Made by a program: the position numbers and the translations under genes. The notes below the pieces were generated by a model that was not told where the DNA came from, did not search any database, and worked only from the letters and a program-made list of their open reading frames with translations. A stretch of 64,000 bases of DNA from Gammaproteobacteria bacterium (GTDB lineage Bacteria; Pseudomonadota; Gammaproteobacteria; JBCCGL01). Shown one piece after another: positions 46,138 to 64,000 of this stretch. Every line of letters begins with the position of its first letter. Within the stretch, counting starts at the first letter, position 1. The stretch spans positions 3,808,001-3,872,000 of the forward strand of contig OZ255836.1 of NCBI GenBank assembly GCA_965277715.1, in the 5' to 3' direction.

Positions 46138-46549
46138 AGATTTATATGCCTCTATAGCGAGCGCGTTCCTGAGTTTCCGTGCAGTGTGCCAGTTTTAATA
46201 ATTAAAATGAAGTACTATTTATAGTCTATTGGTATTTATAGGTTTTTTTATATTTTTTCTAGAGTCGATGCTGGTATTTACCTATAGACCCACATGATCA
46301 GCGTTCAGTATTACATTATTAACCAAGATTACAGTGACGCATATTTATAATTCAGCCATCTACCCCATAATTTTAGCATCTCGTCAAAAAGTATTTTTTG
46401 TACGGCGTTATTTGATTAATCAACCACCAGGCGTAGAATCATTAATCAGGTGACAGTTTAGGTGATAACGCGTCGCCCAATAACTTTTTGCCTGCCAAAA
46501 CAGTGTGAGCGCTAATGCTTGACTGCCAAGTGCGCTTACGGATTGTTCT

Positions 46550-47755: not shown

Positions 47756-47785
47756 GAACACCCCTCTAGGTTTTTGGGAGTATTT

Positions 47786-48793
47786 ATGAGTAATAACGAT
47801 AGTTACGATTACCAAAAAAACCAGGATGCGTTTATGAACGCCCTGTATTGGTATGGTATTCCCACTTTATTTCGCGCCCCACACAATCCTGACCCGCGTG
47901 AATGTGATATTGCTTTGGTGGGGGTTCCGCACAGCACTGGCAATGGCACTACCGAGCGCGATCAACACCTGGGGCCGCGTGCGGTGCGCGATGTCTCGGC
48001 AAATGGTCGGCGCGTGCATATGAAATTCGAGCTGGACCCGTGGAACACCTGTCGTATTAATGATTTGGGCGATGTGCCGCTGACCCATGCCAACGACAAT
48101 GAAAAATCCATCGAGCATATTACCGAGTACTACCGGCATATCGATGCGGCGGGCGCCAGGCCGGTGTCTGTCGGTGGTGATCACTCGGTGACTGGCGGTA
48201 TTTTGCAGGCGCTCGGCGGGCCGACGTCGACCCTTACCCAGGGTGAAAAAGCCTGTATTTTGCATTTCGATGCACACACTGATTGCTTTAGTAATATGAA
48301 GCATTTTCTCGGTGCGAAAAAATCTGCCGCCCACTGGGCCTCGTATCTGGTGCGTGATGGCCATGTCGATGCGCACCACAGTGTACAAATCGGTATTCGC
48401 GGCAATGCGCGCACGTTGGACTGGTTAAAGCCCAGCTATGAGCATGGTTACGAAGTGATTACGATGGATCGCTACAATGAAATTGGCGCGCAAAAAAGTA
48501 TCGATATTATTCAAAACCGCATCGGTGGCCGGCCTTTATATATCACCTTCGATCTGGATTGCCTCGACCCATCAGTGGCGCCGGGGGTGTCTAATATTGA
48601 GGCCGGTTGTAATGGTTTTATGGTCGATCAGGTGATGCAGTTGTTGCAGTGCGTGCGCGGTTGTAATGTTATTGGTGGGGATGTGGTGTGTTTGATTCCG
48701 ACTAAAGACAGTCCGAATAAAATTACTTCAATGGTGGCGATGGCGGTTATGTTTGAAATTATCAGTTTGATTGCTGATGGGAAAAGTCGGTAG
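47786..48793 (+). CDS. Ureohydrolase (agmatinase/arginase family)
   Basis: GPRAVR, DLGDV, GGDHS, HFDAHTD, TFDLDCLDP..APG; start re-set. Confidence 0.92.
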   Translation: MSNNDSYDYQKNQDAFMNALYWYGIPTLFRAPHNPDPRECDIALVGVPHSTGNGTTERDQHLGPRAVRDVSANGRRVHMKFELDPWNTCRINDLGDVPLTHANDNEKSIEHITEYYRHIDAAGARPVSVGGDHSVTGGILQALGGPTSTLTQGEKACILHFDAHTDCFSNMKHFLGAKKSAAHWASYLVRDGHVDAHHSVQIGIRGNARTLDWLKPSYEHGYEVITMDRYNEIGAQKSIDIIQNRIGGRPLYITFDLDCLDPSVAPGVSNIEAGCNGFMVDQVMQLLQCVRGCNVIGGDVVCLIPTKDSPNKITSMVAMAVMFEIISLIADGKSR

Positions 48794-48801
48794 TTTGCTG
48801 T

Positions 48802-48842
48802 GCTGTCAAATCTGCGTTTGCTTAGGCGTGGTGTTTGACAGC
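48802..48842. terminator. Inverted repeat between convergent genes
   Basis: GCTGTCAAA...TTTGACAGC. Confidence 0.4.
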
Positions 48843-48888
48843 GAAGCCATAAAACCAAGTGTGACTGCTTTTTCTCATAAAGAGGGAG

Positions 48889-50370
48889 TTATATGGTTTC
48901 ACTCGCGGTGTTTTGGTGTTTTTCTTTCATCGACCGGCCAATGCGCAGTACACTCGCCACCAAGCCTTCTATATGTTCGGCCCGCGTGGCGTGGTTAATA
49001 ATGCAAACCCGCAAAACCGGCCTGCCATTTACCTGTGTGGCGGACATTAAGTAATCGCCCTCTAGCTGGATTTGGTCACGAATGCCGGTATTGATGGCGT
49101 CGATGCGTGCGTCACTCAAGCCTGGCGTAGTAAAGCGATAACACAGAATTGATAGCTGCGGTGCGGTGATCAGTTCAAGGTTATCTTCCCGCCGGATAAG
49201 ATCCGCCAAGTAGTCAGCGCATTGCACGTTGTGCAGGGCGTTGCGCCCCAGGCGCTCAATGCCGTAATGCCGTAATGCCAGGTAAAAAGGCAGGGCGCGA
49301 AAACGCCGGGATAATTCCGGACTGATATGGAAAAACATGTATTGCTCAGGAGAAGTGTCGCCACCCGCCTGTAGATAGTCCGGGTTGTCATAAAACAGTG
49401 TGCGTGCGGCGTTGGCATCGCGGTATAGCAGTACACTGCCATCCAGCGATTGAAAAAACCACTTGTGCAAATCCATCACCACCGAATCGGCGTGCTCGAT
49501 GCCCTTATAACGTGATCGTAGCGTCTGGGATAACAACCCCCCGCCACCGTAAGCGGCGTCTACATGCAGCCATACGCCGTGTTCTTTGCACAGTGTGGCG
49601 ATGCTGTCGAGTGGATCGATAGCACCGGTATTGGTCGTGCCCGCACTGGCGACAACGCAAACCACATTCGCGTGCTGTGCCAAGGCTTCAGCCAGTTTAT
49701 CGGGCTGCATACAAAACTGCGCATCGGTCGCCACGGCAATCACGTTATCTGTACCGATACCCAGCATCGCCGCTGCACGTCGAATCGAAAAGTGGGCCGC
49801 CTGTGAGCAGATCACCACCGGTGAAGACGGCTGGCTAAATGCCTGCAAGCCTTTTTGACGATAAGCAACGCCAAACTTTTTTGCCAGGGCGCTGGCGATG
49901 CCTGTGGTATTCCCCAGCGAACCACCACTGAGTAAAACCCCTTCCGCCTCTGCGGGAAAACCGGCTAAATCGGCCAGCCAGCCAATCACCGTTCGCTCAA
50001 TCGTCGTGCCAACCGGGGATGACCAATAACCGCCCACATTTTCGTTGAGCGCCGCAACCATCGCGTGGGCCAGCGGGTCGGTGGGCATGCCTGAGGGTGC
50101 CACCCAGCCGAAAAAACCGGGGTGAGTATTACGGCGCGGGCATTGATTGTTGGCATGTGTAATCTGCGCCACGAGGTCATCGAGTGTATCGCCACCCTGT
50201 GGGTAGCGGGTATCCACCAGCGCCGCGACATCAACGGCGCGGGAAGGGCGGAGAATCGGCGACAGTGCACGTTGTGCCAACAGCGGCGACAACGCGGTAT
50301 TGAGGTCGATATCGGCGGTGTGGGTCAAATCGTCGGCGGGGTCGAGGTGGGGGCGGGGTGGGCTTGTCAT
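48889..50370 (-). CDS. Group II PLP-dependent amino-acid decarboxylase
   Basis: SGGSLGN, AHFSI, AGTTNTGAIDPL, WLHVDAAYGG, DLHKW (PLP lysine), LRVCIINH. Confidence 0.93.
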   Translation of the reverse strand: MTSPPRPHLDPADDLTHTADIDLNTALSPLLAQRALSPILRPSRAVDVAALVDTRYPQGGDTLDDLVAQITHANNQCPRRNTHPGFFGWVAPSGMPTDPLAHAMVAALNENVGGYWSSPVGTTIERTVIGWLADLAGFPAEAEGVLLSGGSLGNTTGIASALAKKFGVAYRQKGLQAFSQPSSPVVICSQAAHFSIRRAAAMLGIGTDNVIAVATDAQFCMQPDKLAEALAQHANVVCVVASAGTTNTGAIDPLDSIATLCKEHGVWLHVDAAYGGGGLLSQTLRSRYKGIEHADSVVMDLHKWFFQSLDGSVLLYRDANAARTLFYDNPDYLQAGGDTSPEQYMFFHISPELSRRFRALPFYLALRHYGIERLGRNALHNVQCADYLADLIRREDNLELITAPQLSILCYRFTTPGLSDARIDAINTGIRDQIQLEGDYLMSATQVNGRPVLRVCIINHATRAEHIEGLVASVLRIGRSMKEKHQNTASETI

Positions 50371-50509
50371 TGGCGTTATCTTCTGGTTTTCTATGGGCGT
50401 GGTTTGAGTGCATCATTGTAATCGATCAATTTCATTGAAAACAGCTTCACTGAAGGTTGGCATTGGCCACGCCGCTCTCCATTCACCTCTTATTCGGGAT
50501 AGAAAACTG

Positions 50510-51397
50510 ATGATAAAAAACCCTGTGCCCTGGCCAAACAATGCCAAATGTGCGGTTGCCTTCACCTTCGATATGGATGCCGATAGCCTGATTCATTTGG
50601 AACACCCAAAAACGGCGCACCGGAGAGTCTCGGCTATTTCCATGTTGCGCTATGGCCCGGAAGTGGCGATTGCCCGCATCCTCGAAACCTACCGTGAATA
50701 CAATATGCAGCAAACTTTTTACGTACCCGCCTGGTGTATTGAACAGTACACCGATGCGGTAAAAGCAATGGTCGATGGCGGGCACGAAGTCGCCCACCAC
50801 GGCTATATCCACGAAAACCCCAATGTCCTGCCGCCGGATGAAGAAAGGCACTGGTTACAGCGTGGCATCAGCGTTATCGAAAATGTGACGGGTCAGCGCC
50901 CGCGTGGGTGGCGGGCGCCGCTCTACAATTTTTCAGATGCCTCCGTCGATTTACTGATCGACGAAGGATTTCGTTACGACGCCTCCCTAATGGGTGATGA
51001 CGTACCGTATATATTGAAAACCGATAAAGGTCAGTTAATCGAACTACCTTCCTACTGGGGTATGGATGACTGGCCACAGTTTGTGCATTCGATCGATTTA
51101 AATTACACGATGCCGCTTCAGTCCCCATCGCGGGGGATGGATGTATTCCGCGAAGAATTCGATTCCATGTACAAACACGGTGGGTTGTGGGTCACCGTTT
51201 GGCATCCGTTTGCCTCCGGGCGATTGGCGCGCTGGGAAAAAGTCATCGAACTGATTGACTATATGAACAGCAAAGGTGATGTGTGGTTTGCGCGTATGGA
51301 AGACATTGCCGCGCATGTTCAAGCATGCATTGATGACGGCAGCTATGTGCCGCGTGTCGACGCCCTGCTGTATTATTCAGGGCCAGTGGAAATATAA
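50510..51397 (+). CDS. Polysaccharide deacetylase family (CE4/PuuE-like) protein
   Basis: WPNNAKCAVAFTFDMD, HEVAHHGYIHE, GWRAP, YDASLMGDD, HPFASGR; start re-set. Confidence 0.9.
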   Translation: MIKNPVPWPNNAKCAVAFTFDMDADSLIHLEHPKTAHRRVSAISMLRYGPEVAIARILETYREYNMQQTFYVPAWCIEQYTDAVKAMVDGGHEVAHHGYIHENPNVLPPDEERHWLQRGISVIENVTGQRPRGWRAPLYNFSDASVDLLIDEGFRYDASLMGDDVPYILKTDKGQLIELPSYWGMDDWPQFVHSIDLNYTMPLQSPSRGMDVFREEFDSMYKHGGLWVTVWHPFASGRLARWEKVIELIDYMNSKGDVWFARMEDIAAHVQACIDDGSYVPRVDALLYYSGPVEI

Positions 51398-51429
51398 GTA
51401 TTTTTAATTCAACTTTAACTTATACAGGC

Positions 51430-51457
51430 TTGCCTTAATCGATTTAGGGTCTACAAT
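51430..51457 (+). promoter_or_regulatory. Candidate sigma70 promoter of the cas operon
   Basis: TTGCCT-N16-TACAAT about 55 bp upstream of cas1. Confidence 0.45.
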
Positions 51458-51510
51458 TTAAAGTAACAGGCCGTTGAAGCCTGATTATCATTTTAAAAAA
51501 AGGCAAATAA

Positions 51511-52470
51511 ATGGAACAACTGACGGATTTAAAGGCGATACTGCACTCCAAGCGAGCGAATATCTATTACCTGGAAAAATGCCGTGTAATGCAAAAAGAC
51601 GGCAGGGTGCTTTACCTCACCGAGGCGAAAAATGAAAACCAGTATTGGAATATCCCTATTGCCAATACCACGGTAATCTTATTAGGCACGGGTACATCAA
51701 TCACGCAAGCGGCGGTAAGAATGCTGGCGTCGGCGGGGGTGTTGATCGGTTTTAGTGGTAGCGGTGCGACACCGCTGTTGGCCGCCAGTGAGGTTGAATG
51801 GCTATCGCCCCAAAGTGAATACCGCCCCACTGAGTATATTCAGGGTTGGATGTCATTTTGGTTTGATGGTGAAAAACGCCTGCAAGCCGCCAAGCAGCTT
51901 CAACAGGCGCGTATTCAGTTCTTAGCGGGTGTCTGGTCAAAAGATAAAGACCTGAAAGCAGAGGGTTTTTACCTCGATGATAAGGATATTACCCATGCCT
52001 TCAAAGACATCACCACTAAGATTGATGCCGCCCCTAAAGTCAGTGACTTATTGAATACCGAAGCCCTGCTAACCAAACAACTGTACAAAATTGCAGCAAA
52101 CCGCACGCAGTACGGTGATTTTGTACGCGAGCGGGAGGCAGAAGACACCGCCAATGCCTTTCTCAATCACGGCAACTACCTGGCGTATGGGTTGGCTGCC
52201 AGCACTTTATGGGTGCTTGGCATCCCTCACGGTTTTGCGGTTATGCACGGTAAAACCCGGCGAGGTGCATTGGTATTCGATGTCGCGGACTTGATTAAAG
52301 ATGCACTGGTGTTGCCCTGGGCGTTTATCTGTGCCAGAGAAAAAGCGACGGAGCAGGAATTTCGACAGCAGTGCCTGCAAGCGTTTACCCAGCACAAGGC
52401 GTTGGATTTTATGTTTGAAGCGGTGAAAAACATCGCCTTAAAAGCCGCTTGGGAAGGTGACACCCCATGA
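51511..52470 (+). CDS. cas1: Type I-F Cas1
   Basis: ILHSKRANIYYLEKCRV, YWNIPIANTT, SEYRPTEY, HGNYLAYG, HGKTRRGALVFDVADLIKD. Confidence 0.97.
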   Translation: MEQLTDLKAILHSKRANIYYLEKCRVMQKDGRVLYLTEAKNENQYWNIPIANTTVILLGTGTSITQAAVRMLASAGVLIGFSGSGATPLLAASEVEWLSPQSEYRPTEYIQGWMSFWFDGEKRLQAAKQLQQARIQFLAGVWSKDKDLKAEGFYLDDKDITHAFKDITTKIDAAPKVSDLLNTEALLTKQLYKIAANRTQYGDFVREREAEDTANAFLNHGNYLAYGLAASTLWVLGIPHGFAVMHGKTRRGALVFDVADLIKDALVLPWAFICAREKATEQEFRQQCLQAFTQHKALDFMFEAVKNIALKAAWEGDTP

Positions 52471-55424
52471 TGGTTACCCTTGTTTCTCAGTGTGAGAAAA
52501 AAGCATTGCGTAAAACCCGCAGAGTGCTGGATGCCTTTGCCAATCGCATTGGGGACAATACCTGGCAGACGGTGATTACCCAAGAGGGTTTGCTGGCAGT
52601 TAAAAAATTGCTGCGCAAGACCGCCAGCAAAAATACAGCGGTGAGCTGCCACTGGATTCGTAGCCGCGCCCGCAGTGACTTGGTGTGGGTGGTGGGGGAT
52701 AAAAGCAAGTTTAGTGTAAACGGAATTGTACCTGTAAATTTCACGGCAAAAGAGGTGCCAATGGATATAGTAACTGACAAACCGCGTAAAGGTGTTGATT
52801 ATGCAAATACACACTTACAACGCTTAGATTATCATCTGTATGCGGTAGGGTTTATTGCACAGTATTTGTATTTAAGTTTTTATCCTGATAAAAAACAAAA
52901 CGCTAAAGCTGCTTTTTTTGCAGGTTGTTTACATGATATTGGCAAGCTTGATCCAAGCTTTCAGAATTGGGTTACTAAGTTAAAAAATAGGGCTTACTTT
53001 GCTGAAGATGGGCAGCATATAGACGAAGCAAAATTCAGTTTTGATAAACACCCTAGGCACAACGAAATTTCAGTGCTTGTTTATGAACTGTTAGATGATG
53101 TTTCGCTGAAAACAATAGATTCACAAAATAAGAAATCGATTAGACATGCTATTTATTGGCATCATGCTAAGCCCTTCAGGCAAAAGGGAGGGTTTGAGAC
53201 CTATGCCGATATTTATAAGAAATTGGATAAAGCTCTTAAAGGTGAAGCATGGTCTCAGGTGATTGAGAAGTCCTTAGAAGTATTAGCCCGTATTGGAAAG
53301 ATAGATTGTAGATATCGTGGTATTGAGTCCAGCCACTTAGAGAAGATTTACCCAAAGAAAATAGATGCCGATAAGTTGAATTATATTGAATCCAAATTGT
53401 TGCCAAAATACAAGATGTATGGCCTTTCTGAAGAAATAGCAGATTACAAAGAAGAATCAAAATTTAATGCTACTAACAATGAAATTCGATCTTTTTTAAT
53501 TACAGCAGATCGGTGGGTATCCAGCATGTCAGCGCAAGAGTTGGTAAGCGCTATTGATGAGAAGACATTGGCAGAGTTCGCTGATAATCAACTCGAAAGC
53601 GAAGTAATCATAGAAAGTAATTTAGAAAGCGAAATAGTCGCATGTATAAGTAAATTCTCCAACAGTGAACGAAGCGAAAAACAAACGCTAGTCGCCAATG
53701 CACTAGTTGAAAATAGCAATCATGTTAGTGTATTAGCAGGTGCTGCAGGTTGTGGAAAAACAAAAATAGCACTGGACTGGGCGAGGCTAGGTAAATCACA
53801 ACAAATACTTTGGATTTGTCCTCGCGTACAAATATGTCAAGGGTTATTTGCCGAATTGGCAAGTGATGTCTACCTTCCTACTACTAACATTGAGCTCTAT
53901 ACAGGTGAATTTAAGTGTACAAATACCTATCAAAACATAACTCCTGAATTAGATTATTTTACTGGTGATATTGTTATCACCACGATTGATCAGGTTCTCA
54001 GTATGGTTATAAGCCATACCAAAGCGGACAGGTTGCTTAATTATTTAACCGCGCATGTGGTGTTTGATGAATACCATGAATATATTAATATGCCAGCATT
54101 TAATTTGTTATTCGCAGAGCTCGTGGCTTCAAAGCAGAGTTTAGGTGGTAGTACAAAAACTCTGTTGGTTTCAGCTACACCACACTATGCCTATCTCGAA
54201 AATATACTGGATTTAGATGCTGAATATGATGTAGAAGAAATGCCATCGTTTAATCAAAGTCGATATAAATTTGAGTTCTGTGTTTTTTGTGAAAAGGATC
54301 ATAATGATAAAAATCCCTTGTATCATAAGCAAAAAATTAACAGTTTTGTTATTAGTAATACTGCTACAACTGCTCAGAAAAGTTTTATTCTTAACCAACA
54401 TAATGAAAATGCAATTTTACTTCATTCAAAGTATAAAAAAAGCGATAAAAAGAAATTATTTGAACGCGTATTTGAGTCATTTAGGCGTGATGGAAATAAG
54501 CAATATAAAATATTAAGGAGTGGTCCTATAGTGCAGGCGTCCTTGAATATTAGTTGTGATTATATGGTATCTGAAATAACCACTGCAGAAAACAATTTAC
54601 AACGTTTAGGGCGCTTAGATCGTTTTGGGGAAAACGAACACACCAACCAATATGTGATTGCTGTTCCTGACTCATTTCATAATGGTAAGAATAGCGGGGC
54701 TACTGCCAGGTTTCTTAATTCAACCAGTAGTCTTGCAGCGACTAGAGCGTGGTATAACTATTTACAGGAGGTAAGTGATTTAGGAGAAAAGATTTTTTTA
54801 CTGGCTGATATTTATCATATTTACAAAGATTTTTATAGTTTGGGTTCGCCTGCCTATAAAGAGATAGTCAGCGACTTACTCAAAGCAATGAAAGAGAGCG
54901 TTAATCTAATAACAGCTAAGGTATCAGAACCTCAAGTCATTGCGAGATCGAAAAAAAGCGCTGCACAAAGAAAAAAAATTAGTAAGAATTCATTGCGTGG
55001 TGATAATCGTTTTATACAGATGGCGATATGTGATGTATCGTTGGTTTATAGTCCTCAAGTTCTTGATCAGTATGCTTACGATATTCCTACATCAGAATCA
55101 GTTGATGTTGATAATATAACCGGTTCTTTAAGAAGGCTTATTTCGGATGGATTACTCAGTTATGCTGCGCAAAAACATGGTCGCATAGATGAAACCAGTA
55201 TAATTAAGGATATACCAGCAAATAGAATGAAAGTTAGAGAAACCTTGTTAGAGGGATATGCAAGAGATCCTGAGTACCCTATTTTTGTAAGTTATACGCC
55301 TAGTGAGTTAGATCAGAAGCTTGGAGAACACACTGCGCATGATGAAGCAATTTACTATGGAGTGTGTGAGAAGCAACCCATAGGCAGTATTTCAATGAAA
55401 CAGTTACTTAACCCTGAGGAGTAA
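52467..55424 (+). CDS. cas3: Cas2-Cas3 fusion (HD nuclease plus SF2 helicase), I-F variant type
   Basis: N-terminal Cas2 (VSQCEKKAL..TRRVLDAFA.RIGD.TWQT.IT.EGL, TAVSCHWIR), HD (LHDIGK), Walker A GAAGCGKT, DEYH, SAT, QRLGRLDR. Confidence 0.95.
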   Translation: MMVTLVSQCEKKALRKTRRVLDAFANRIGDNTWQTVITQEGLLAVKKLLRKTASKNTAVSCHWIRSRARSDLVWVVGDKSKFSVNGIVPVNFTAKEVPMDIVTDKPRKGVDYANTHLQRLDYHLYAVGFIAQYLYLSFYPDKKQNAKAAFFAGCLHDIGKLDPSFQNWVTKLKNRAYFAEDGQHIDEAKFSFDKHPRHNEISVLVYELLDDVSLKTIDSQNKKSIRHAIYWHHAKPFRQKGGFETYADIYKKLDKALKGEAWSQVIEKSLEVLARIGKIDCRYRGIESSHLEKIYPKKIDADKLNYIESKLLPKYKMYGLSEEIADYKEESKFNATNNEIRSFLITADRWVSSMSAQELVSAIDEKTLAEFADNQLESEVIIESNLESEIVACISKFSNSERSEKQTLVANALVENSNHVSVLAGAAGCGKTKIALDWARLGKSQQILWICPRVQICQGLFAELASDVYLPTTNIELYTGEFKCTNTYQNITPELDYFTGDIVITTIDQVLSMVISHTKADRLLNYLTAHVVFDEYHEYINMPAFNLLFAELVASKQSLGGSTKTLLVSATPHYAYLENILDLDAEYDVEEMPSFNQSRYKFEFCVFCEKDHNDKNPLYHKQKINSFVISNTATTAQKSFILNQHNENAILLHSKYKKSDKKKLFERVFESFRRDGNKQYKILRSGPIVQASLNISCDYMVSEITTAENNLQRLGRLDRFGENEHTNQYVIAVPDSFHNGKNSGATARFLNSTSSLAATRAWYNYLQEVSDLGEKIFLLADIYHIYKDFYSLGSPAYKEIVSDLLKAMKESVNLITAKVSEPQVIARSKKSAAQRKKISKNSLRGDNRFIQMAICDVSLVYSPQVLDQYAYDIPTSESVDVDNITGSLRRLISDGLLSYAAQKHGRIDETSIIKDIPANRMKVRETLLEGYARDPEYPIFVSYTPSELDQKLGEHTAHDEAIYYGVCEKQPIGSISMKQLLNPEE

Positions 55425-55427
55425 AGA

Positions 55428-56381
55428 ATGAAAAAAGTAACAGGCATTAAAAGTGTTGATTTCAGAGTTACAGCTAGAGGTCATGGCGTTGTAAACTGGA
55501 ATGGCCCCACGACTCTTAGTAACAGCGAAGGTAAAATGATGAATAATCATACGCTGCCAAAGCTGCGGGGTTATACCAATCTAACCGGTAAAATTAAAGA
55601 TGAAACGGGTTTCAAATATAAAAAAGAGGCTACCGATATAAACTTTAAGGAGAACCCTCTTTATATCAGTCAAAATTGTATACGGCATCATTTGTTTAGA
55701 GATCACGCGTTTGACCTTCATTATGCAGGTGAGAAAAATTTAACGCCTGTACTCGCATCTATTACTGGTTTGATTCGAGGGTATGTTGTCCCAGTTAGCC
55801 AGTGTAAACGCACTAGCCCATTATTGATGGAGGATTTTGTAGACCAATTGGGAAATGGTAATTTTGAACAGTTTGGTCAAGCGGGTGAGCGAGATGATTC
55901 TTCATTTTTTTCAAAAACCACTTTTGGTGATACCGAGTATCTATCTTATGGTTCGATTAGCATTGAACAGTTGCAATTTATCTCACTCGACAAAAAATTT
56001 GATCGGGCCGCAATGTTGATAAAAGACGGTGAAGGTGAAAAAGTTGCTGAAGCTGTTCAGGCATTTATTCAATCTTTGGACGAAGAACTAAACCCTCAAG
56101 CGACCTTTCATAAAAACTACGTGAGAAAAGGAACTATTTTTGAAGAAGGTGAAGTTGGAGTTCTCCTTAATCAGGATGCTATGCAGGCGCTCGTCAGTTA
56201 TACCATCAAAGCTATATCTGAGCTTTCAATACGCCAAGCAAAATCTTATATGTATGTAGACACGGTTGAAGTCGACTATAACAATAGTCCAAAAATGATG
56301 AGGATTAAACGCTCAGATGGACAGGTATCTCCAGATCCTGAATCGCCTTTCGCTATTTATTTTGAAGAAAAATCGGTGTAA
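55428..56381 (+). CDS. cas7fv: Cas7fv backbone protein
   Basis: 317 aa; [10 protein letters not shown]...[31 protein letters not shown] resemble Shewanella I-Fv Cas7; directly after cas3 with no cas8f. Confidence 0.88.
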
Positions 56382-56386
56382 GTATA

Positions 56387-57394
56387 ATGAGGATAAAAAT
56401 TGAATATGAGTCGTCGTGGCGAAATTCTTTTTTAGATGGAAGCAATAATGAATCTTTGCCAAAAAAAGGTAGGAATTTTGTTGGTTCGATGACAGCATTG
56501 AAAAAAGAGGAAAATTATTTGTCTCGTGAAATTACTTTGTCGACAGTGATGGGCATTTTGAACCGATTGATCGGTGACCAGCGAAAACTATACCAATCAA
56601 GGAGTTCTCCCGATTATTATTTTTATGAAATAGAAAAATTAGTTGAGTTTGAGGATAAACCATATTTTATTAACAATGAGGTGATTTATATTAGAAATAT
56701 GAAAGGTAGTACCGATCAAAATGCTTTCACCGGTATGATAAAAGTAAATGATCCCATTTTTATTTCTGGCTATTCAAGTCAGTTCTGGGGCACCTTGCAA
56801 TTAGATTTTGAGGAATTATGTCAGTTTATTATTAACGATAATTTTTTGATTGAGAGATTGAAAAAAACTGACCCAATTTTGATGATTAGTCGCCTGGAGT
56901 CTCTGGACAAAGAAAAAGCAGTTGAGCTAACCGGCCATGTAAAGTTAGCCCATGAAAAGCTAAACTTGATGTTTCCAGAACAAAATTACTTAAACCCTAA
57001 GGGCTTGATAAAGCCAATAATGTTTTATTGCTCTGCGTTGTATCTTCAACTTGCTAGACTTGAAAAACGTTTCGATATGAGAAGTGCCAAAACAAAATCT
57101 GGTGGTATTGGTGGTATATCCAAACGAGGTTTTACTAAAAAAGATTTTATGAATTGTTATACCACGGGAGGTAAAAAAATTATTTGGGGTAACCCATATA
57201 TGAAAAAAGAAAGATTGAAAGGAGAAGGAGAGGTAACATCATTGCTGACTAAAGCAAGTGGGCTATTAACCATCAGAATTGATGTTGATAAAAGCTGGGC
57301 GAGAAACTTTAAAGACCTAATTGAGACTGCTGGGGTATCCAGTTTCTACCTGGGTAAAAAAGGACTTGCTTATGTTAGCGATATTAGAATTTAG
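56387..57394 (+). CDS. cas5fv: Cas5fv
   Basis: 335 aa; [50 protein letters not shown] (Gly-rich RAMP loop). Confidence 0.88.
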
Positions 57395-57406
57395 AGAGAA
57401 TCGAAT

Positions 57407-57967
57407 ATGAACTATTATTTTGATATAAAACTTAATCCAGATTCTGAAATGCCACTTAATCAATTATTAAATGTGGTGTATACCAAATTTCATAAGGCAT
57501 TGTATGATCTGTCATCACAAAGTATTGGTGTAAGCTTTCCTCGATATAATATTATTTTGGGAAATGTGGTTCGAGTACATGGTGATGCTAAAGCGCTTGA
57601 AAATTTGCGAGAAATAAATTGGTTAGGTGGTATAAGTGGTTACTGTGATGTTATCACTATCAAACAAGTACCTCACAACGTACAGTATCGCACTATTAGC
57701 CGTGTACAGCCTAATATGAGTCTATCCGATTTACGGCGTCTTACAAAACGACACTCAATCTCTGAGGGTGTTGTTAAAGAGTATAAAGCCAAGATGTTCA
57801 GCAAAGGACTAGATAATCCATTTGTTGAGTTGGATAGTGGTTCAAGTGGAAATAAATACCGGCGTTATTTCCAGTTTGGAGTGTTACTTGACGAACCTAT
57901 ACAGGGAATATTTGACCAGTTTGGCCTTAGTAAAACAGCTACAGTACCTTGGTTCCCAGCAGGTTGA
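57407..57967 (+). CDS. cas6f: Cas6f (Csy4) crRNA endoribonuclease
   Basis: KFHKAL (catalytic His position), IGVSFP, LGNVVRVHG, FDQFGLSKTATVPWF. Confidence 0.95.
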   Translation: MNYYFDIKLNPDSEMPLNQLLNVVYTKFHKALYDLSSQSIGVSFPRYNIILGNVVRVHGDAKALENLREINWLGGISGYCDVITIKQVPHNVQYRTISRVQPNMSLSDLRRLTKRHSISEGVVKEYKAKMFSKGLDNPFVELDSGSSGNKYRRYFQFGVLLDEPIQGIFDQFGLSKTATVPWFPAG

Positions 57968-58080
57968 TGCCAGCATCCAGTTCCATAAACTAGGTGTAGT
58001 ATTCTTAATCTGATTACGGATTACCTCATTTTTCTGTCAGTGTACGTCTGCACAGTTGGCAAGGTAAGTCGATTGAATTT

Positions 58081-58243
58081 ATGTGGCAAAGGCGTTTAAC
58101 TTTTCCATATGCCTATGTAAAAAGCTTATCCACTGGGAATATGATAAGGATATATTGATCACGGTGTATTGTGTGATACACCGCAAGAAGGTGTATTCTC
58201 CAGCTATGGCCTAAGCAAGACAGCAACGATACCCTGGTTTTAA
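58081..58243 (+). pseudogene. cas6f: C-terminal relic of a second, divergent cas6f
   Basis: RRLTFPYAYVKSLSTGNMIRIY, frameshift in an ATATAT run, IDHGVLCDTPQEGVFSSYGLSKTATIPWF*. Confidence 0.88.
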
Positions 58244-58374
58244 CCTTCTTTTTTTATGTTCTTTAAAAATTTAATAAGATTAATAAGTTATAGAATCACT
58301 AAATTTCATAGGTATTTTTGTTATTTGAGGTTAAGTGTTTATTGTGGCTAATTTTTTTTGCTTTATATTCGTGG
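58244..58374 (+). promoter_or_regulatory. Type I-F CRISPR leader
   Basis: AT-rich, 131 bp; CCTTCTTTTTTT...CTTTAAAAAT, IHF-like ATTAATAAGTTA, T-tract just before the repeat. Confidence 0.8.
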
Positions 58375-58402
58375 GTGCACTGCCGTACAGGTAGCACTAA
58401 TC
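58375..58402 (+). CRISPR. Single degenerate type I-F repeat; no spacer or second repeat
   Basis: GTGCACTGCCGTACAGGTAGCACTAATC versus canonical GTTCACTGCCGTACAGGCAGCTTAGAAA (19 of the first 21 match, 3' end diverged). Confidence 0.82.
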
Positions 58403-58489
58403 AACGGGTACAACTAAATACGTACTTAGCCGACTAAAACTTCTATAGTAATACGCTATAAAGCAATCTGAAGCACTGAAAAAATACCT

Positions 58490-59458
58490 ATGCAGACCCC
58501 ATCTACCAGCACGCCTAAAAAAATCCCAGTAGGTATCAGCGCCTGTCTACTCGGTGATCCGGTGCGTTATAACGGTGGCCACAAACGCTCAACCTTATGC
58601 CAGGAAGTGTTTACCGAGTACTTTGATTACGTTACCTTTTGCCCGGAAGTCAGTGCCGGGTTTGGGGTGCCAAGGCCCACCATGCGCCTGGTCGGTGACC
58701 CCAGCGCGCCGGTTTTAACCTATGTAAAAAACAGCGATGAAGACCTTAGTGAGCAGTTGCGCGCCGGGTTTACCGCGCAGCTCGAACGCTGTGTCGATCT
58801 CGATGGTTATATTCTGATGAAGAATTCACCGAGCTGCGGTATGGCGCGCATCAAGGTTTATCAAGCCTCTGGGGCGCCGCATCAAACCAAATCCCGTGGT
58901 TTGTTTGCCGATGCCTTGATAAAACGTTACCCACAGATGCCGATTGAGGAAGAAGGTCGGTTGAACGATACGCACCTTCGGGAGAATTTTGTTATGCGGG
59001 TGTACGCACACCATCGCTTTCGCCACGATGTGCTGGCGGTGCGCCGCTATAAGGCGTTGCTGGATTATCACAGTGGCTATAAATACCTGTTGATGGCGCA
59101 TAGCCAAACCGCCTATCGGGCGTTAGGGAAAATGCTGGCATCGTCCAGCGCCTTGCCCATTGATACCGTGTTGCACGATTATTTTGTCGATTTTATGGCG
59201 GCGATTGCGACACCCGCCAGCCGGGCCGGGCATTGTAATGTCTTGCAGCATATCCTGGGCTACCTGAAAAAATCGGTATCCGGGCAAGCGCGGCAGGATA
59301 TCGATCAGGTGATTGCCCGTTATCGGCGTGGTGAGGTTAGCCTGGCCACGCCACTGGCGTTACTTAACCACTATATTAAGCAGTCGGGTAGTGATTATAT
59401 TCGTGCGCAACGCTACTTGGCACCGCACCCGCCGTCGCTAGAGGCTTGTCGGTTTTAA
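58490..59458 (+). CDS. DUF523/DUF1722 (YbgA, 2-thiouracil desulfidase-like) protein
   Basis: GISACLLGDPVRYNGGH, CPEV, KNSPSCG, EEEGRLND, HSGYKYLLMAHS, NVLQHILGYLK. Confidence 0.92.
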   Translation: MQTPSTSTPKKIPVGISACLLGDPVRYNGGHKRSTLCQEVFTEYFDYVTFCPEVSAGFGVPRPTMRLVGDPSAPVLTYVKNSDEDLSEQLRAGFTAQLERCVDLDGYILMKNSPSCGMARIKVYQASGAPHQTKSRGLFADALIKRYPQMPIEEEGRLNDTHLRENFVMRVYAHHRFRHDVLAVRRYKALLDYHSGYKYLLMAHSQTAYRALGKMLASSSALPIDTVLHDYFVDFMAAIATPASRAGHCNVLQHILGYLKKSVSGQARQDIDQVIARYRRGEVSLATPLALLNHYIKQSGSDYIRAQRYLAPHPPSLEACRF

Positions 59459-59536
59459 GCGCGTTATTTATTTTTAAGGCAGTCGACGATATTCTCATAT
59501 TGAACGCTATCGCACACCGCTCCTGAATAACACGAT

Positions 59537-61141
59537 TTAATCGTGTCGCGCTAACATCATATCCGCCGCTTTCTCGGCAATCATAATCGTCGGTGCATTG
59601 GTATTGCCAGAGGTGATATTCGGCATAATCGAGGCATCGGCGATACGCAGCCCCTGAATGCCGTGCACGCGCAGTTGGGCATCGACTACCGCGCTGTTAT
59701 CGCCGCCCATTTTGCAGGTGCTGGTGGGGTGGTAGATGGTCTCGGCGATGTTTTTTGCGCCTTCGAGAATCTCTGCATCGCTTTGCTTATCCATCCCCGG
59801 TCGGAACTCTTCGGCAACATAGTGTTGCATGGTGGGGGAGTGGGCAATCGCCCGGGATTTTTTAATGCAGGCAATCGCCGTATTGCGGTCTAGTTCAGTG
59901 GATAGGTAGTTGGGCTGAATGCTTGGGTATTCACGCGGGTTGGCCGAGACCAGGTTGATGCTGCCACGGCTCTCGGGGCGCAATTGGCAAATCGAGGCGG
60001 TAAAAGCAGAGAACGGGTGCAAACCCTCTCCGGGGGAGTCGGCGCTGAGGGGTTGCATATGGAATTGAATATCCGGGCGCATCACCTCGGGTGTCGAGTT
60101 GCAAAAAACGTATACCTGGCTGGCCGCCATGCTCAGCGGGCCGGTGCGGGTGAGGATGTATTGCACCCCTACACGCATTTTTTGCAATACATTACTCAGT
60201 TCGTCATTGAGGGTCGGCGTGTGGGTTTTGTACACCGCACGAAATTGCAGGTGATCCTGCAGGTTTTGCCCTACCCCCGGTAACGCCTTAACCACCTCGA
60301 TACCCTGGCCACGCAACAACTCCGCGTCACCAACCCCAGATAGTTGTAGCAGGTGAGGGGAGTTGATGGCGCCCGCCGATAACACCACTTCACGGGTGCA
60401 ATCGAAGCGGTGTTTGCCACCATCCCGGATAACCTCAACACCGCAGGCACGCGTGCCGTCAAAAAGGATTCTATCGACTTGTGTGTTGGTTAATACACGC
60501 AGGTTGCTGCGTTTTTTCGCTGGGTTTAAATACCCTTTGGCGGTGCTCCAGCGGCGCCCTTTATGGGCGGTTAGTTGGTAGTAGCCGACGCCTTCCTGGG
60601 TGGCGCCGTTACAGTCGTTATTTCTGGGAATACCCACCTCTACTGCGCCTTCGATAAAGGCATCACAGATGGGCCGGGTAAAACCGATATTGGAGACTTT
60701 GAGCGGGCCGCCGACACCGTGGAATTCACTCGCGCCACGCGCCTGGTCTTCGGCTTTTTTGAAGTAGGGCAGTACATCATCAAACCCCCAGCCGGGGTTA
60801 CCTGCGTCACGCCAGTCGTCGTAGTCCTGCACTTGTCCGCGTATATAGAGCAGGCCATTGATCGAGCTGGATCCGCCGAGCACTTTGCCGCGTGGCCACT
60901 TTAATGAACGGTTGTTAATGCCGGGGTCTGGCTGGGTTTTGTAACACCAGTCCATACCGGGGTTGTGGATGGTCTTGAAGTAGCCAACGGGCATATGAAT
61001 CCACGGGCTGGTGTCTTTGCCACCGGCTTCAATCAGCAGCACGCGGTTAGTTGAGCTTGCCGACAGGCGGTTGGCCAACACGCAACCGGCAGAACCTGCA
61101 CCGACGATAATGAAATCGTATTGTTCGTTGTGGTTACTCAT
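59537..61141 (-). CDS. GMC family FAD oxidoreductase (choline dehydrogenase-like)
   Basis: VGAGSAGCVLANRLS, PRGKVLGGSSSING, GQNLQDH, YHPTSTCKMG, GNTNAPTIMIAEK. Confidence 0.93.
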   Translation of the reverse strand: MSNHNEQYDFIIVGAGSAGCVLANRLSASSTNRVLLIEAGGKDTSPWIHMPVGYFKTIHNPGMDWCYKTQPDPGINNRSLKWPRGKVLGGSSSINGLLYIRGQVQDYDDWRDAGNPGWGFDDVLPYFKKAEDQARGASEFHGVGGPLKVSNIGFTRPICDAFIEGAVEVGIPRNNDCNGATQEGVGYYQLTAHKGRRWSTAKGYLNPAKKRSNLRVLTNTQVDRILFDGTRACGVEVIRDGGKHRFDCTREVVLSAGAINSPHLLQLSGVGDAELLRGQGIEVVKALPGVGQNLQDHLQFRAVYKTHTPTLNDELSNVLQKMRVGVQYILTRTGPLSMAASQVYVFCNSTPEVMRPDIQFHMQPLSADSPGEGLHPFSAFTASICQLRPESRGSINLVSANPREYPSIQPNYLSTELDRNTAIACIKKSRAIAHSPTMQHYVAEEFRPGMDKQSDAEILEGAKNIAETIYHPTSTCKMGGDNSAVVDAQLRVHGIQGLRIADASIMPNITSGNTNAPTIMIAEKAADMMLARHD

Positions 61142-61207
61142 TCATATGTTCCTGATCGACCTGGTTCAATATGGGGACGACAACCGGGTATCGATCACCG
61201 CAAGCTG

Positions 61208-61384
61208 GGAGCCTGTCTGATTCAGGACTGCTCTACTGCGGAAAAGCCGACCTGGCCCTTTTTTGCGCCCCCATTTTTTGCGTACTATTTCGTCAAATAG
61301 AACCACTATGTTTCTCAACAGTGCACAAAAAATGACTCAAATCGGTCTTTCCCTCGTTACGAGCGCCTAAACCCGACAGGCTCC
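61208..61384. mobile_element. MITE family A, complete 177-bp copy
   Basis: Terminal IRs GGAGCCTGTCTGATTCAGG and CCTAAACCCGACAGGCTCC (16 of 19), non-coding interior, TG on both flanks, related copies at 21221 and 19266. Confidence 0.8.
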
Positions 61385-61548
61385 TGGAGCGGATTATGCC
61401 CGAGTGTTCAGGAATGTCTAATAGTGAGAGTACTATTCTTATTAATGGGATTACTGCAGGGCGCAATAGCACTGTATCTGGTGAGTTTCTATACGCCGGT
61501 TTGTGCGCTAAGCTGCGGTTATTTCGCGTCGTGATTTGAGGTAATAGC

Positions 61549-62448
61549 GTGGCAGTTCAAATAACCCCCAACCCGGTACTCGACCAAATACTCGACCAGG
61601 CCAGGCAGTTGCCGTGCTGGCATGGCCCGGTTAATCCACAGCCCCTTTCCGGTGGTTTGAGTAACCACAACTACACGGTTGAAGACGGTGGCCGAAAATA
61701 TGTTGTGCGTATTGGTGGCGATGCCCCTATGCACAATGTTATGCGCTTTAACGAGCACGCCTGCGGGCGGGCGGCTGAGGCTATTGGCATTACCCCCGGG
61801 CAGGTGTACACGGGGGCAGATGTGTTGGTGATGGATTTTATCGATGGCAAGACATTCGATGCGGGTGATGTGCAGGCAAATCTGGTGCGCATTGTGTCGA
61901 CGGTAAAAACCTTGCACACGGCAGGTATGCGGGCGCTGCGCGGGCCGGTGCTGGGGTTTTCGGTGTTTCATGTGCTGCGCCACTACGCAAAACTGCTCGA
62001 CGGGTCGGCCTGCCGCAGCGCGGCCCAATTGCCCCGCCTACTGAAAATTGCCGATGCGCTGGAGGCGGTTGTCGGTCCCAGTGAGGTGGCGCTCTGCCAT
62101 AACGACTTGCTGGCTGCAAATTTTATCGACGACGGCGAAAAAATCTGGCTGATCGATTGGGAGCACGCCGGTCTGGGTATGCCATTGTTTGATCTTGCCA
62201 GCATCGCCTCAAATAACGCGCTGGATGAAACCCTCGAACGCAGCCTGCTCGAATGCTATTACGGCACACCGCCGGATGCGTTGTTGTGGCGTCGTTTCAA
62301 AGCGCTGCGGGTGGCCTCTCACCAGCGCGAGACGATGTGGAGCATGGTGTCAGAAATTCACTCCGGGTTAGACGAGGACTACGCCGCCTACACCGACAAA
62401 AATCTGGAGGATTTCAACGAAGCTTACGCAGGCTTTAAAATACTATGA
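61549..62448 (+). CDS. Choline/ethanolamine kinase (APH-like phosphotransferase) family
   Basis: LSGGLSNHN, CHNDLLAANF (Brenner motif), LIDWEHAG, FDLA. Confidence 0.9.
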   Translation: MAVQITPNPVLDQILDQARQLPCWHGPVNPQPLSGGLSNHNYTVEDGGRKYVVRIGGDAPMHNVMRFNEHACGRAAEAIGITPGQVYTGADVLVMDFIDGKTFDAGDVQANLVRIVSTVKTLHTAGMRALRGPVLGFSVFHVLRHYAKLLDGSACRSAAQLPRLLKIADALEAVVGPSEVALCHNDLLAANFIDDGEKIWLIDWEHAGLGMPLFDLASIASNNALDETLERSLLECYYGTPPDALLWRRFKALRVASHQRETMWSMVSEIHSGLDEDYAAYTDKNLEDFNEAYAGFKIL

Positions 62449-64000
62449 GTAACGCAACACTGCCCGCCGAGGCGCGCATCGTCATTATCGGCGGCGGCAT
62501 TATTGGCTGCTCGACGGCCTACCACCTGGCCAAAATGGGCTGCAACGACGTACTGGTATTGGAGAAAGGCCAGCTCACCTCTGGCTCGACATTCCACGCC
62601 GCTGGCTTGGTGGGTCAGTTGCGCAGCAACGCCAATATCACCCAACTGCTCGGTTATTCGGTCGAGCTGTATCGCTCGCTGGAACAGGAAACCGGGCTGG
62701 CCACAGGCTGGAAGATGAACGGCGGCCTGCGCCTGGCGTGTAACCAACAGCGCTGGACCGAAGTCAAACGCCAGGCGACCACCGCCCACTCCTTTGGCCT
62801 GGATATGCACCTGCTCAGCCCCGCCGAGGCACTCGAACTGTGGCCGATCATGGACACCAGCGACCTGGTGGGGGCGGCTTTCCTGCCCAGTGATGGCCAG
62901 GCCAACCCCTCAGATATTACCCGCTCACTGGCCAGCGGCGCCCGCCGGGCCGGTGTGCAGTTCCACGAGGAGACCAAGGTACAAGGCTTTGCCTTTGAGG
63001 GTGAACGTCTGTGTGGCGTGTGCACCAATCGGGGTGATGTACGGTGCGAGCGCGTGGTTATTTGCGCCGGGCAGTGGTCCCGGCAGCTCGGTCTACTCGC
63101 CGGGGTCAACGTACCGCTGGTATCGATACAACACCAATATCTGATAACCGAGCGCATACCCTCGGTGCCCGCTAACCTCCCCACCCTACGCGACCCGGAT
63201 CGACTCACCTACTTCAAGGAAGACGTGGGCGGATTAGTGATGGGCGGCTACGAGCCGAACCCTATCCCGTGGGCGCAACGCGGTATTCCCGAGGGCTTTA
63301 ACTTCACTCTGTTGGACAACGACTGGGCACACTTCGAACCACTGATGGCGCAGGCCATCGCCCGCGTACCGGCACTGGCAGACGCGGGCGTTAAGCAAAT
63401 GATCAACGGCCCGGAGAGCTTCACGCCAGACGGCAACTTTATTCTCGGCGAAGCGCCCGAGCGCAAAAACGTCTTTGTCGGCGCGGGCTTTAACGCCTTT
63501 GGTATCGCCTCTGGCGGTGGCGCGGGTATGGCCCTGGCCGAGTGGGTATTAAAAGGTGCGCCACCGTTTGACTTATGGCCGGTGGATATCCGCCGTTTTG
63601 GCCAGCCTCACCGCGATGTCGAATGGGTGCGCGAACGCACGCTGGAGGCCTACGCCAAGCACTACACCCTGGCCTGGCCGCACGAAGAACACAGCAGCGG
63701 CCGCCCCTGTCGTCGCTCGCCTTTATACGACAGCCTAAAAGCACAGGGTGCTTGTTTTGGTGAAAAGCTCGGCTGGGAGCGCCCCAACTGGTTTGCCACA
63801 GAGGGTCAGGCAGCGGTCGACCACTACAGCTATGGGCGGCAAAACTGGTTTGACACCGTGGGGGGCGAACACCGCGCCGTGCGTGAGCGGGTGGCAGTAT
63901 TCGATCAAACCTCCTTTACCAAATACCGGGTGCACGGGCCGGATGCAGCGCGGGCGCTGTCATGGCTGTGCGCCAACGACATCGAACGCCCACCGGGTGC
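62445..64000 (+). CDS. FAD-dependent GcvT-family oxidoreductase (dimethylglycine/sarcosine dehydrogenase-like), runs off the window
   Basis: Not in the ORF track (no stop inside the window); ATG 62445 overlaps the upstream TGA; MSNATLPAEARIVIIGGGIIGCSTAYHL, TSGSTFHAAG, LRDPD, NGPESFTPDG, GWERPNWF. Confidence 0.92.
   Translation, partial: MSNATLPAEARIVIIGGGIIGCSTAYHLAKMGCNDVLVLEKGQLTSGSTFHAAGLVGQLRSNANITQLLGYSVELYRSLEQETGLATGWKMNGGLRLACNQQRWTEVKRQATTAHSFGLDMHLLSPAEALELWPIMDTSDLVGAAFLPSDGQANPSDITRSLASGARRAGVQFHEETKVQGFAFEGERLCGVCTNRGDVRCERVVICAGQWSRQLGLLAGVNVPLVSIQHQYLITERIPSVPANLPTLRDPDRLTYFKEDVGGLVMGGYEPNPIPWAQRGIPEGFNFTLLDNDWAHFEPLMAQAIARVPALADAGVKQMINGPESFTPDGNFILGEAPERKNVFVGAGFNAFGIASGGGAGMALAEWVLKGAPPFDLWPVDIRRFGQPHRDVEWVRERTLEAYAKHYTLAWPHEEHSSGRPCRRSPLYDSLKAQGACFGEKLGWERPNWFATEGQAAVDHYSYGRQNWFDTVGGEHRAVRERVAVFDQTSFTKYRVHGPDAARALSWLCANDIERPPG

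Follow-up and report, generated by a model that had tools for sequence, protein, structure and literature searches.

How does a CRISPR-Cas locus (short palindromic repeats, clustered and regularly interspaced, and their associated genes) come to carry an adaptation half that resembles its host and an interference half that does not? The question is raised by a locus in a sponge bacterium of the Gammaproteobacteria, lying within a 64,000-nucleotide (nt) stretch of contig OZ255836.1 (positions 3,808,001 to 3,872,000) that is referred to here as the window and numbered from its first letter. At 51511-57967 on the plus strand the window holds cas1f, cas2-3, cas7fv, cas5fv and cas6f, a type I-F2 (I-Fv) gene set. 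Our analysis indicates that the interference half of an older I-F locus was very probably replaced in place by this I-F2 set, leaving a hybrid cas2-3 gene and a stub of another cas6f. The initial annotation, drawn from the sequence alone, had proposed such a course, in which an incoming cas3-cas7fv-cas5fv-cas6f block displaced an older effector module while the resident cas1-cas2 and leader were kept, and contigs from sister strains now support it.

These sister strains provide the decisive evidence for an in-place swap. Four public sponge-metagenome runs (X1, X2, X4 and X7) were aligned to 46500-62500, and alleles other than I-F2 were found in three of the four studies. The flanks are approximately 98-99% identical, and cas1 approximately 99%, in strains that hold other, larger DNA at the site. 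In X1, positions 52582 and 58086 are joined across 7336 letters, versus 5503 in the window, between flanks with 25 differences in 2249 nt and 43 in 2875 nt, and the match restarts exactly at the first base of the cas6f stub. In X2, 7275 other letters lie between 52696 and 58383, with 55 differences in 5928 nt of one flank and 47 in 2967 nt of the other. Run X7 represents the organism of the window in another sample; one of its contigs covers 56652-58247 and is identical to the window there, so more than one assembly contains the right join. Related genomes carry near-identical cas1 at the same site beside unrelated effector genes, the pattern by which in situ exchange of an effector module is recognized.

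The stub itself records what was lost. The initial annotation had described an intact Cas6f running past the usual PWF end to PWFPAG* and, ahead of the leader, the frameshifted 3' end of a different cas6f ending PWF*. The former is borne out; for the latter, tblastn matches in two frames locate a relic that starts 118 bp past the stop codon of the intact gene. One frame runs from about 58081 to 58155 and the other from 58151 to 58243, ending PWF*, and the whole aligns colinearly with the C-terminal ~54 residues of intact Cas6f proteins. Its low identity to the adjacent cas6f (60% over 30 amino acids, about 75% over 40 nt) indicates that it is not a duplicate of that gene. The X1 contig has an extra 'AT' behind 58149, where the relic shows a 2-bp loss (near 58149/58150); the two relic frames lie 70 nt apart (58081 and 58151), or 72 with the 'AT' of X1, and so fall in register. 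The relic is thus a decayed copy of a gene that in X1 is presumably whole. Relic and leader together differ from X1 by 6.5%, while the cas6f end and leader of X2 give no alignment to the relic at the 88% setting at which those of X1 do align. Among 101 regions downstream of cas6f, a clear relic was found in the window only (E 8e-12), with one other marginal match (E 5.7e-4); tandem cas6f was not seen in 99 of the 100 other loci and is not a normal feature of them.

The relic peptide reaches at best 70% identity in a representative library (13 matches), and its motifs resemble the class of Cas6f proteins that are 27-38% identical to the intact Cas6f of the window. Relative to that protein Cas6f falls into two classes, at 52-61% and 27-38% identity, with one locus between at 45%. 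These classes are not aligned with the I-F1/I-F2 division, some I-F1 loci belonging to the first and the I-F2 loci L036 and L055 to the second. The PWFPAG extension was considered as a mark of the join and dropped, because short extensions of 1-3 residues past the P-x-F end occur in 7 of 45 Cas6f relatives (three residues in one of the 45).

The displaced module was most likely of type I-F1 (cas3f, csy1-3 and cas6f), as the initial annotation had suggested as a possibility. A protein search with residues 1-95 of the window Cas2-3 found P0008, a protein of 1123 residues encoded on a Logan contig of 19452 nt, which is also the length of the bridging contig of X2. P0008 is 89% identical to the window protein over residues 1-93 and shows no similarity beyond; it is a full-length Cas3f equivalog (TIGR02562, 875 bits), and those nearest to it among the 120 listed proteins bear the name type I-F Cas3f (best 64%). 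This Cas3f shows the X2 type of sister allele to be I-F1. For the X1 type, the source of the relic, size points the same way. The span that begins at codon 39 of cas2-3 and stops about 155 nt short of the cas6f end is 6833-7887 nt in 34 I-F1 loci versus 5139-6887 nt in 60 I-F2 loci; at 7336 nt, inside the I-F1 range and above the I-F2 maximum of 6887, X1 would fit I-F1 only. The I-F1 loci checked, L077 and L064, carry Csy1-4 equivalogs. A metagenome scan with the C-terminal 234 residues of the X2-type Cas3f, a scan of viral contigs with Cas5fv and a search of E. coli genomes with the flank each gave no match.

Composition changes abruptly within cas2-3. The guanine-plus-cytosine (GC) content at third codon positions (GC3) stands at 0.55 for cas1 and at 0.567 for the Cas2-domain codons (52467-52736), then falls to 0.29 in the rest of cas2-3, 0.32 in both cas7fv and cas5fv and 0.27 in cas6f; in the 36 other open reading frames (ORFs) of at least 250 residues in the window it is mostly 0.50-0.72. 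The maximum-likelihood change point falls at 52710 for GC3 (interval of 2 log-likelihood (lnL) units, 52692-52764) and at 52699 for all bases. Block by block, GC3 in cas2-3 is 21/39 for codons 1-39, 27/38 for codons 40-77, 5/16 for codons 78-93 and 10/37 for codons 94-130, which places the step at codon 77/78, about 52697, the same place at which the X2 and X4 matches end (52696). The AT-rich turn described in the initial annotation is borne out as a break (GC3 from 0.55-0.57 to 0.27-0.32), but its position there, about 52740, is some 40 bp too late compared with 52699-52710.

The phylogenies of the two halves are incongruent, as a swap predicts. The genome loci sampled were the 80 best Cas1 matches to the window and the metagenome loci were chosen by I-F2 Cas3 similarity; the sample includes some duplicate rows, and the trees are quick searches. 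Cas2-3 lengths are bimodal, at 1084-1135 residues in 35 I-F1 rows and 962-994 residues in 56 I-F2 rows, the window included. On the Cas1 tree (91 rows) I-F1 and I-F2 are interspersed, with 23 changes of type, of which at least 10 are required by branches supported at 95 or more in the Shimodaira-Hasegawa-like approximate likelihood ratio test (SH-aLRT); shuffling gives 27.9 changes on average, and a number as low as 23 in 14-15 of 500 shuffles. On the Cas3-part tree the window belongs with L082, L084, L090, L088, L085 and L086 to a clade of seven rows (SH-aLRT 100). The Cas1 plus Cas2-domain data reject this clade (approximately unbiased (AU) test, p=0.012, lnL difference 95) and also reject monophyly of I-F2 (AU p=0.033, lnL difference 738). 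Cas1 is not sorted with I-F2, a grouping that the initial annotation had named as speaking against a swap.

The same break is visible across the family. The Cas1 tree contains three well-supported I-F2/I-F1 sister pairs, two of which unite members of a single genus (Nitrosomonas L076/L077, 99; Candidatus Spongiihabitans L027/L056, 98), and a third in L007/L010 (95). For L076 and L077, identity is 86% over 5.7 kb of upstream flank and 95.3% over a stretch comprising cas1 and 279 nt of cas2-3, after which nothing is common to them until the arrays. In 2253 of the 2555 pairings of an I-F2 with an I-F1 cas2-3, DNA similarity begins with the gene and ends at nt 113-302 (median 272); beyond nt 330 no similarity was found. 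The repeat consensus is identical in I-F1 and I-F2. In 28 I-F2 loci with at least 3 kb of flank, cas1 GC3 follows flank GC with a slope of 1.47 (r 0.84), compared with 0.36 (r 0.37) for the Cas3 part; in 31 I-F1 loci the slopes are 0.90 for cas1 and 0.98 for the Cas3 part, which lies about 0.10 lower. Because I-F1 and I-F2 are mixed in the Cas1 trees, which conflict with the Cas3 trees, in-place swaps look recurrent. The interspersion, the same-genus pairs, the stop in DNA homology, the common repeat consensus and the I-F2 slopes also support a broader proposal, which we regard as possible but somewhat short of probable. The end of the Cas2 domain would be a standing seam of type I-F, at which a resident, slowly evolving chassis of cas1, Cas2 domain, repeat and leader tracks the host, while the interference cassette (Cas3 part through cas6f, of I-F1 or I-F2 form) is swapped repeatedly by crossover in the left arm and I-F2 cassettes are drawn from an AT-rich mobile pool. 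If true, the adaptation machinery and any surviving spacer memory would persist through each renewal of the components that face phage inhibitors.

The class of the window locus follows from its profile matches (Cas7fv, Cas5fv, Cas6f, Cas1f and the Cas2-Cas3 fusion; Table 1) together with a gene order like that of an annotated Legionella longbeachae plasmid (L081), where it reads cas1f, Cas3'', cas7fv, cas5fv, cas6f. The window Cas7fv is 77.5% identical to the annotated cas7fv product of this plasmid, and all five cas genes of the window are intact. Cas8f/Csy1 and a small subunit are absent between cas2-3 and cas6f, where two ORFs of 317 and 335 residues fill 55428-57394 with gaps of 3-12 bp. 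Equivalogs of Csy1-3 were not found in the window locus, although the same profiles do match the I-F1 loci L077 and L064, and Cas5fv has no NCBIfam match at 1e-5. The Cas3f model TIGR02562 matches residues 1-97 of the window Cas2-3 only (142 bits versus a cut-off of 566), and the length of the protein, 985 residues, lies within the I-F2 class of 962-994. The 118 bp following the intact cas6f show no similarity among 100 cas6f-downstream regions of other loci. The repeat at 58372-58399 departs at its 3' end from the consensus common to I-F1 and I-F2 loci; its core has no second copy within the 64-kb window, with no tandem array and no spacers at the site, and Rfam gave no match on 57900-58600. 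The locus is without guides, or unloaded, unless arrays sit elsewhere in the genome. In the X1 strain three repeats and two spacers can be deduced from the spacing of aligned pieces (99 contig letters between them, 37 letters between two repeat copies), compared with one repeat in the window, so that the arrays are tiny in both.

Table 1. Features of the window locus and matching contigs of the four metagenome runs; terms such as resident and incoming refer to the proposed exchange.
Feature	Positions	Strand	Evidence
Upstream host flank gene, polysaccharide deacetylase family	50408..51397	+	PF01522; X1 and X2 contigs differ ~1%
cas1f, probable resident adaptation gene, host-like composition	51511..52470	+	TIGR03637 Cas1f 481 bits; GC3 0.55; X1/X2/X4 ~99%
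cas2-3 (whole)	52467-55424	+	985 aa
cas2-3 5' part, Cas2 domain, codons 1-77, probable resident DNA	52467..52696	+	PF21384 residues 1-79; GC3 48/77
Left junction zone, in frame within cas2-3	52697..52764	+	X2/X4 match end 52696; GC3 change point 52710 (52692-52764)
Probable incoming cas2-3 part, I-F2-type Cas3 (HD nuclease and helicase)	52697..55424	+	TIGR01596 HD, TIGR01587 helicase core; GC3 0.29
cas7fv, 317 aa	55428..56381	+	NF040577 equivalog 467.5 bits (cut-off 200), profile positions 1-316 of 317
cas5fv, 335 aa	56387..57394	+	PF20158 Cas5fv helical domain 226 bits, profile positions 1-157 of 158
Intact cas6f, end PWFPAG*	57407..57967	+	PF09618 184 bits; TIGR02563 161 bits; GC3 0.27
118-bp tail of probable incoming block	57968..58085	+	GC 0.40; unmatched by X1 or X2
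Relic 3' end of putative displaced cas6f, frameshifted	58086..58243	+	tblastn in two frames; X1 alignment begins 58086
Probable resident CRISPR leader, 128 bp, AT-rich	58244..58371	+	GC 0.21; aligned with relic in X1 contig
Single degenerate terminal I-F repeat	58372..58399	+	X2 match restarts within repeat at 58383
Downstream host flank gene, 2-thiouracil desulfurase / DUF1722	58490..59458	+	PF04463 and PF08349; GC3 0.59; X1/X2/X4 match
X1 (study P1), one 12862-nt contig	50334-52582; 58086-58395; 58375-61249		25 differences; 20 differences, 12 gap letters; 43 differences
X2 (study P2), one 19452-nt contig	46500-52427; 52467-52696; 58383-61349		12 differences in 230 nt of 52467-52696
X4 (study P3), one contig	match ends 52696		Same 374-letter insert as X2
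X7 (organism of the window, another sample)	I-F2 genes covered; one contig spans 56652-58247		Zero differences in 56652-58247

A course of events consistent with these data can be proposed. In the ancestor the present cas1 and leader would have enclosed a larger I-F module, most likely I-F1, and foreign AT-rich DNA (the Cas3 part, cas7fv, cas5fv, cas6f and about 118 bp downstream) would have replaced it; the truncated relic points to this direction. On the left, crossing over in frame near codon 77/78 of cas2-3 would have produced a hybrid of the resident Cas2 domain and the incoming Cas3, seamless in that it has the length of other I-F2 Cas2-3 proteins. The crossover was likely homologous, since this join lies inside the cas1 and Cas2-domain stretch in which DNA conservation extends across I-F1 and I-F2, within 42 nt of the point where homology between the two typically ends. 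The right join, at 58085/58086 inside the old cas6f, would be illegitimate, as it shows no homology, and may have formed at once or as a later deletion following a cointegrate. The last ~54 codons of the old cas6f would have been left behind, with 2 bp lost since. Cas1 would thereby stay with its Cas2 partner while Cas3 arrives with its own Cascade, which fits the I-F2 Cas3 docking on Cas5 and Cas7, and not on Cas8, described in the relevant part of PMC12956352. Escape from anti-CRISPRs as the motive is speculative, and that part of PMC12956352 likewise offers it for I-F2 as speculation only.

An assembly chimera, in which the I-F2 genes of another sponge-community bacterium were joined at conserved Cas2-domain sequence, would account for the locus without any exchange, and several observations lend themselves to it. 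Among many bacteria, protein identity of Cas1 and the Cas2 domain is 75-89%, there are several I-F carriers in sponge metagenomes, and 52448-52859 is unspanned by any listed X7 contig; the left join is instead backed by runs with a share of 1.00 that are possibly the assembly's own source. We nevertheless consider a chimera exceedingly unlikely. At the right join there is no shared sequence to mislead an assembler, and the X7 contig from a different sample spans it at 100%. All sampled words of 50400-59460 are present in two runs, and the hybrid Cas2-3 is encoded on a 4.29-Mb contig by an in-frame ORF of normal I-F2 length. Cas2-domain DNA of I-F1 and I-F2 from different organisms is moreover mostly about 80% identical or lower, too low for a k-mer join.

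Other observations weigh against a single, recent exchange. In a control of 116 I-F loci from genomes and metagenomes, GC3 of cas1 plus the Cas2 domain exceeds that of the Cas3 part by 0.13 on average (standard deviation 0.09), and nine of the 116 show a larger drop than the 0.27 of the window. Because such a drop is common at the Cas2/Cas3 boundary, the break is weak as evidence of a recent swap: composition neither dates nor proves one, GC alone is insufficient, and the control ruled out the break as proof of recency. This usual drop, and the slight extent to which the I-F2 Cas3 part tracks host GC, would suit an I-F2 locus that is old at the site, with intrinsically AT-rich effectors and a relic of an old tandem arrangement. 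Such an account is very improbable, however, since strains with flanks differing by about 1-1.6% carry other modules and alleles must have turned over within the species. The 6.5% divergence of relic and leader from X1 corresponds, by a rough estimate rather than a computation, to the level of unconstrained sites given 1-1.5% in flanking genes, and looks inherited rather than like ancient debris; the rarity of tandem cas6f speaks in the same direction. Whether one event suffices is another matter: X1 departs at 52582 (codon 39) and X2 at 52696 (codon 77), the Cas2-domain stretch is 5.2% different from X2 versus about 1% in the flanks, and at least three alleles require at least two exchanges or a mosaic ancestor. 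With recombination at the site evidently recurrent and polarity not rootable without an outgroup strain, I-F2 could be imagined as ancestral in the species, the X1 and X2 strains having each replaced it with larger modules. The window, however, keeps a 5'-truncated, frameshifted, X1-like cas6f piece contiguous with an X1-like leader, so that an X1-like gene must have preceded the I-F2 block in this lineage; together with the spread of non-I-F2 alleles over most of the studies, this makes the reverse direction highly unlikely. The joints in the sister contigs were made at a likeness of 88, a setting prone to false joints, though each side comprises 230-255 letters within kilobase-long matching flanks. 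Finally, the displaced module is identified through the X2-type Cas2-3, the X1 type being judged by size and csy1-3 being presumed in both inserts; no X1-type Cas2-3 is among the 120 proteins listed in either protein search. No close relative of the donor emerged, the best relative of the Cas3 part being 64% identical (80 metagenome loci from a scan with the window Cas3 part). Replacement of an older interference module by an I-F2 set is the explanation that we retain.

The boundary between cas1 and cas2-3 showed a further peculiarity. More than 100 nt are inserted in this gap in 36 of 123 I-F loci (window counterpart 52428-52466), and the inserts examined (L018:10945-12393, L082:1038-2725, L011:7952-9224, L037:10933-11843, L001:10948-11681 and L084:4660-5364) encode Bro-N, ORF6N, RhuM, KilA-N or Fic/DUF4172 proteins, which are DNA-binding families of phage or mobile-element type. 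An insert of 374 letters occupies this spot in the sister strains X2 and X4, and in X2 it stands in place of 52428-52466. The gap looks like a cargo slot inside I-F operons. L023 (JALWBF010000067.1, 3646 nt), binned as an Archaeoglobaceae archaeon, encodes a Cas1f 80% identical to that of the window and an I-F Cas2 domain; mis-binning of a bacterial contig is a likelier explanation than an I-F system in an archaeon. Elsewhere in the window, summed contig depth rises about tenfold at 61208-61390 and 48883-48927. Loose ends are numerous there, all four runs show skips of 89-95 nt (such as 61248->61338), and a joint 48883<->61208 links opposite strands; together these suggest a small repeat element in multiple copies that some strains carry and others lack. 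At 43289-43867 a 303-bp tandem repeat (1.9 copies, 87% identity) lies inside an ORF of 959 residues (43258-46137, minus strand) with an unusual GC of 0.54 at second codon positions.

At this one site the two joins, the scar and, in sister strains, the alternative alleles are all visible, so that a process usually inferred from conflicting trees becomes open to direct study. The locus suggests that a Cas2-Cas3 fusion can be rebuilt from a resident Cas2 domain and the foreign Cas3 of another subtype, and the hybrid bears on the co-adaptation of Cas1-Cas2-3 and Cascade as well as on the engineering of hybrid I-F systems. If the wider pattern is true, type I-F subtype labels would describe the interference cassette only, the adaptation half having a separate, host-bound history, and there would be a testable route by which anti-CRISPR targets are changed without losing arrays.

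A comparison with known systems shows both precedents and disparities. For Escherichia coli type I-E, the passages of Almendros et al. (2014, mBio, PMC3903273) on cas-E1 and cas-E2 describe cas-E genes as "altogether replaced" and propose the terminal degenerate repeat as a substitution "anchor". Here, as described there, a cas set has been replaced at one chromosomal site in one species by a substantially different variant, and a degenerate terminal repeat is common to the alleles, the X2 match restarting inside it at 58383. Unlike that exchange within one subtype, cas1 and the Cas2 domain appear to have stayed here while the subtype changed from I-F1-like to I-F2, with a left join inside a fusion gene that yields a hybrid protein and a gene stub at the right join. 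The main text passages of Makarova 2025 (Nat Microbiol, PMC12669027) present closely related cas1 beside distantly related effector genes as a general trend, with an estimated rate, a worked example in cas9 of subtype II-C and a tally keyed on cas8, cas9, cas10 or cas12. Near-identical cas1 beside unrelated effectors follows this trend, but swaps from I-F1 to I-F2 may escape that tally because I-F2 has no cas8; these passages give no breakpoints, scar or within-species alleles for type I-F, and the supplement may hold more. In the literature covered, with supplementary files outside its scope, no description was found of an I-F1-to-I-F2 swap joined inside cas2-3.

The I-Fv system of Shewanella putrefaciens CN-32, as described in part of PMC4937334, and that of the Legionella longbeachae plasmid pB1445CHC_73K (L081) have the same order of cas1f, cas2-3, cas7fv, cas5fv and cas6f and, like the window locus, are without a large or small subunit. 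Unlike these two, the window locus is chromosomal between host genes, retains the stub of an older cas6f, has no spacers at the site, and combines a host-like cas1 and Cas2 domain with genes that are unlike the host. With canonical I-F1 systems (Cas3f and Csy1-4; L077, L064 and P0008) it has in common cas1f, the Cas2 domain, the repeat consensus and a Cas6f, but it lacks csy1-3 and its Cas3 part is not Cas3f. Taken together, the locus is a new and well-documented instance of a known process, with its crossover inside the cas2-3 fusion gene.

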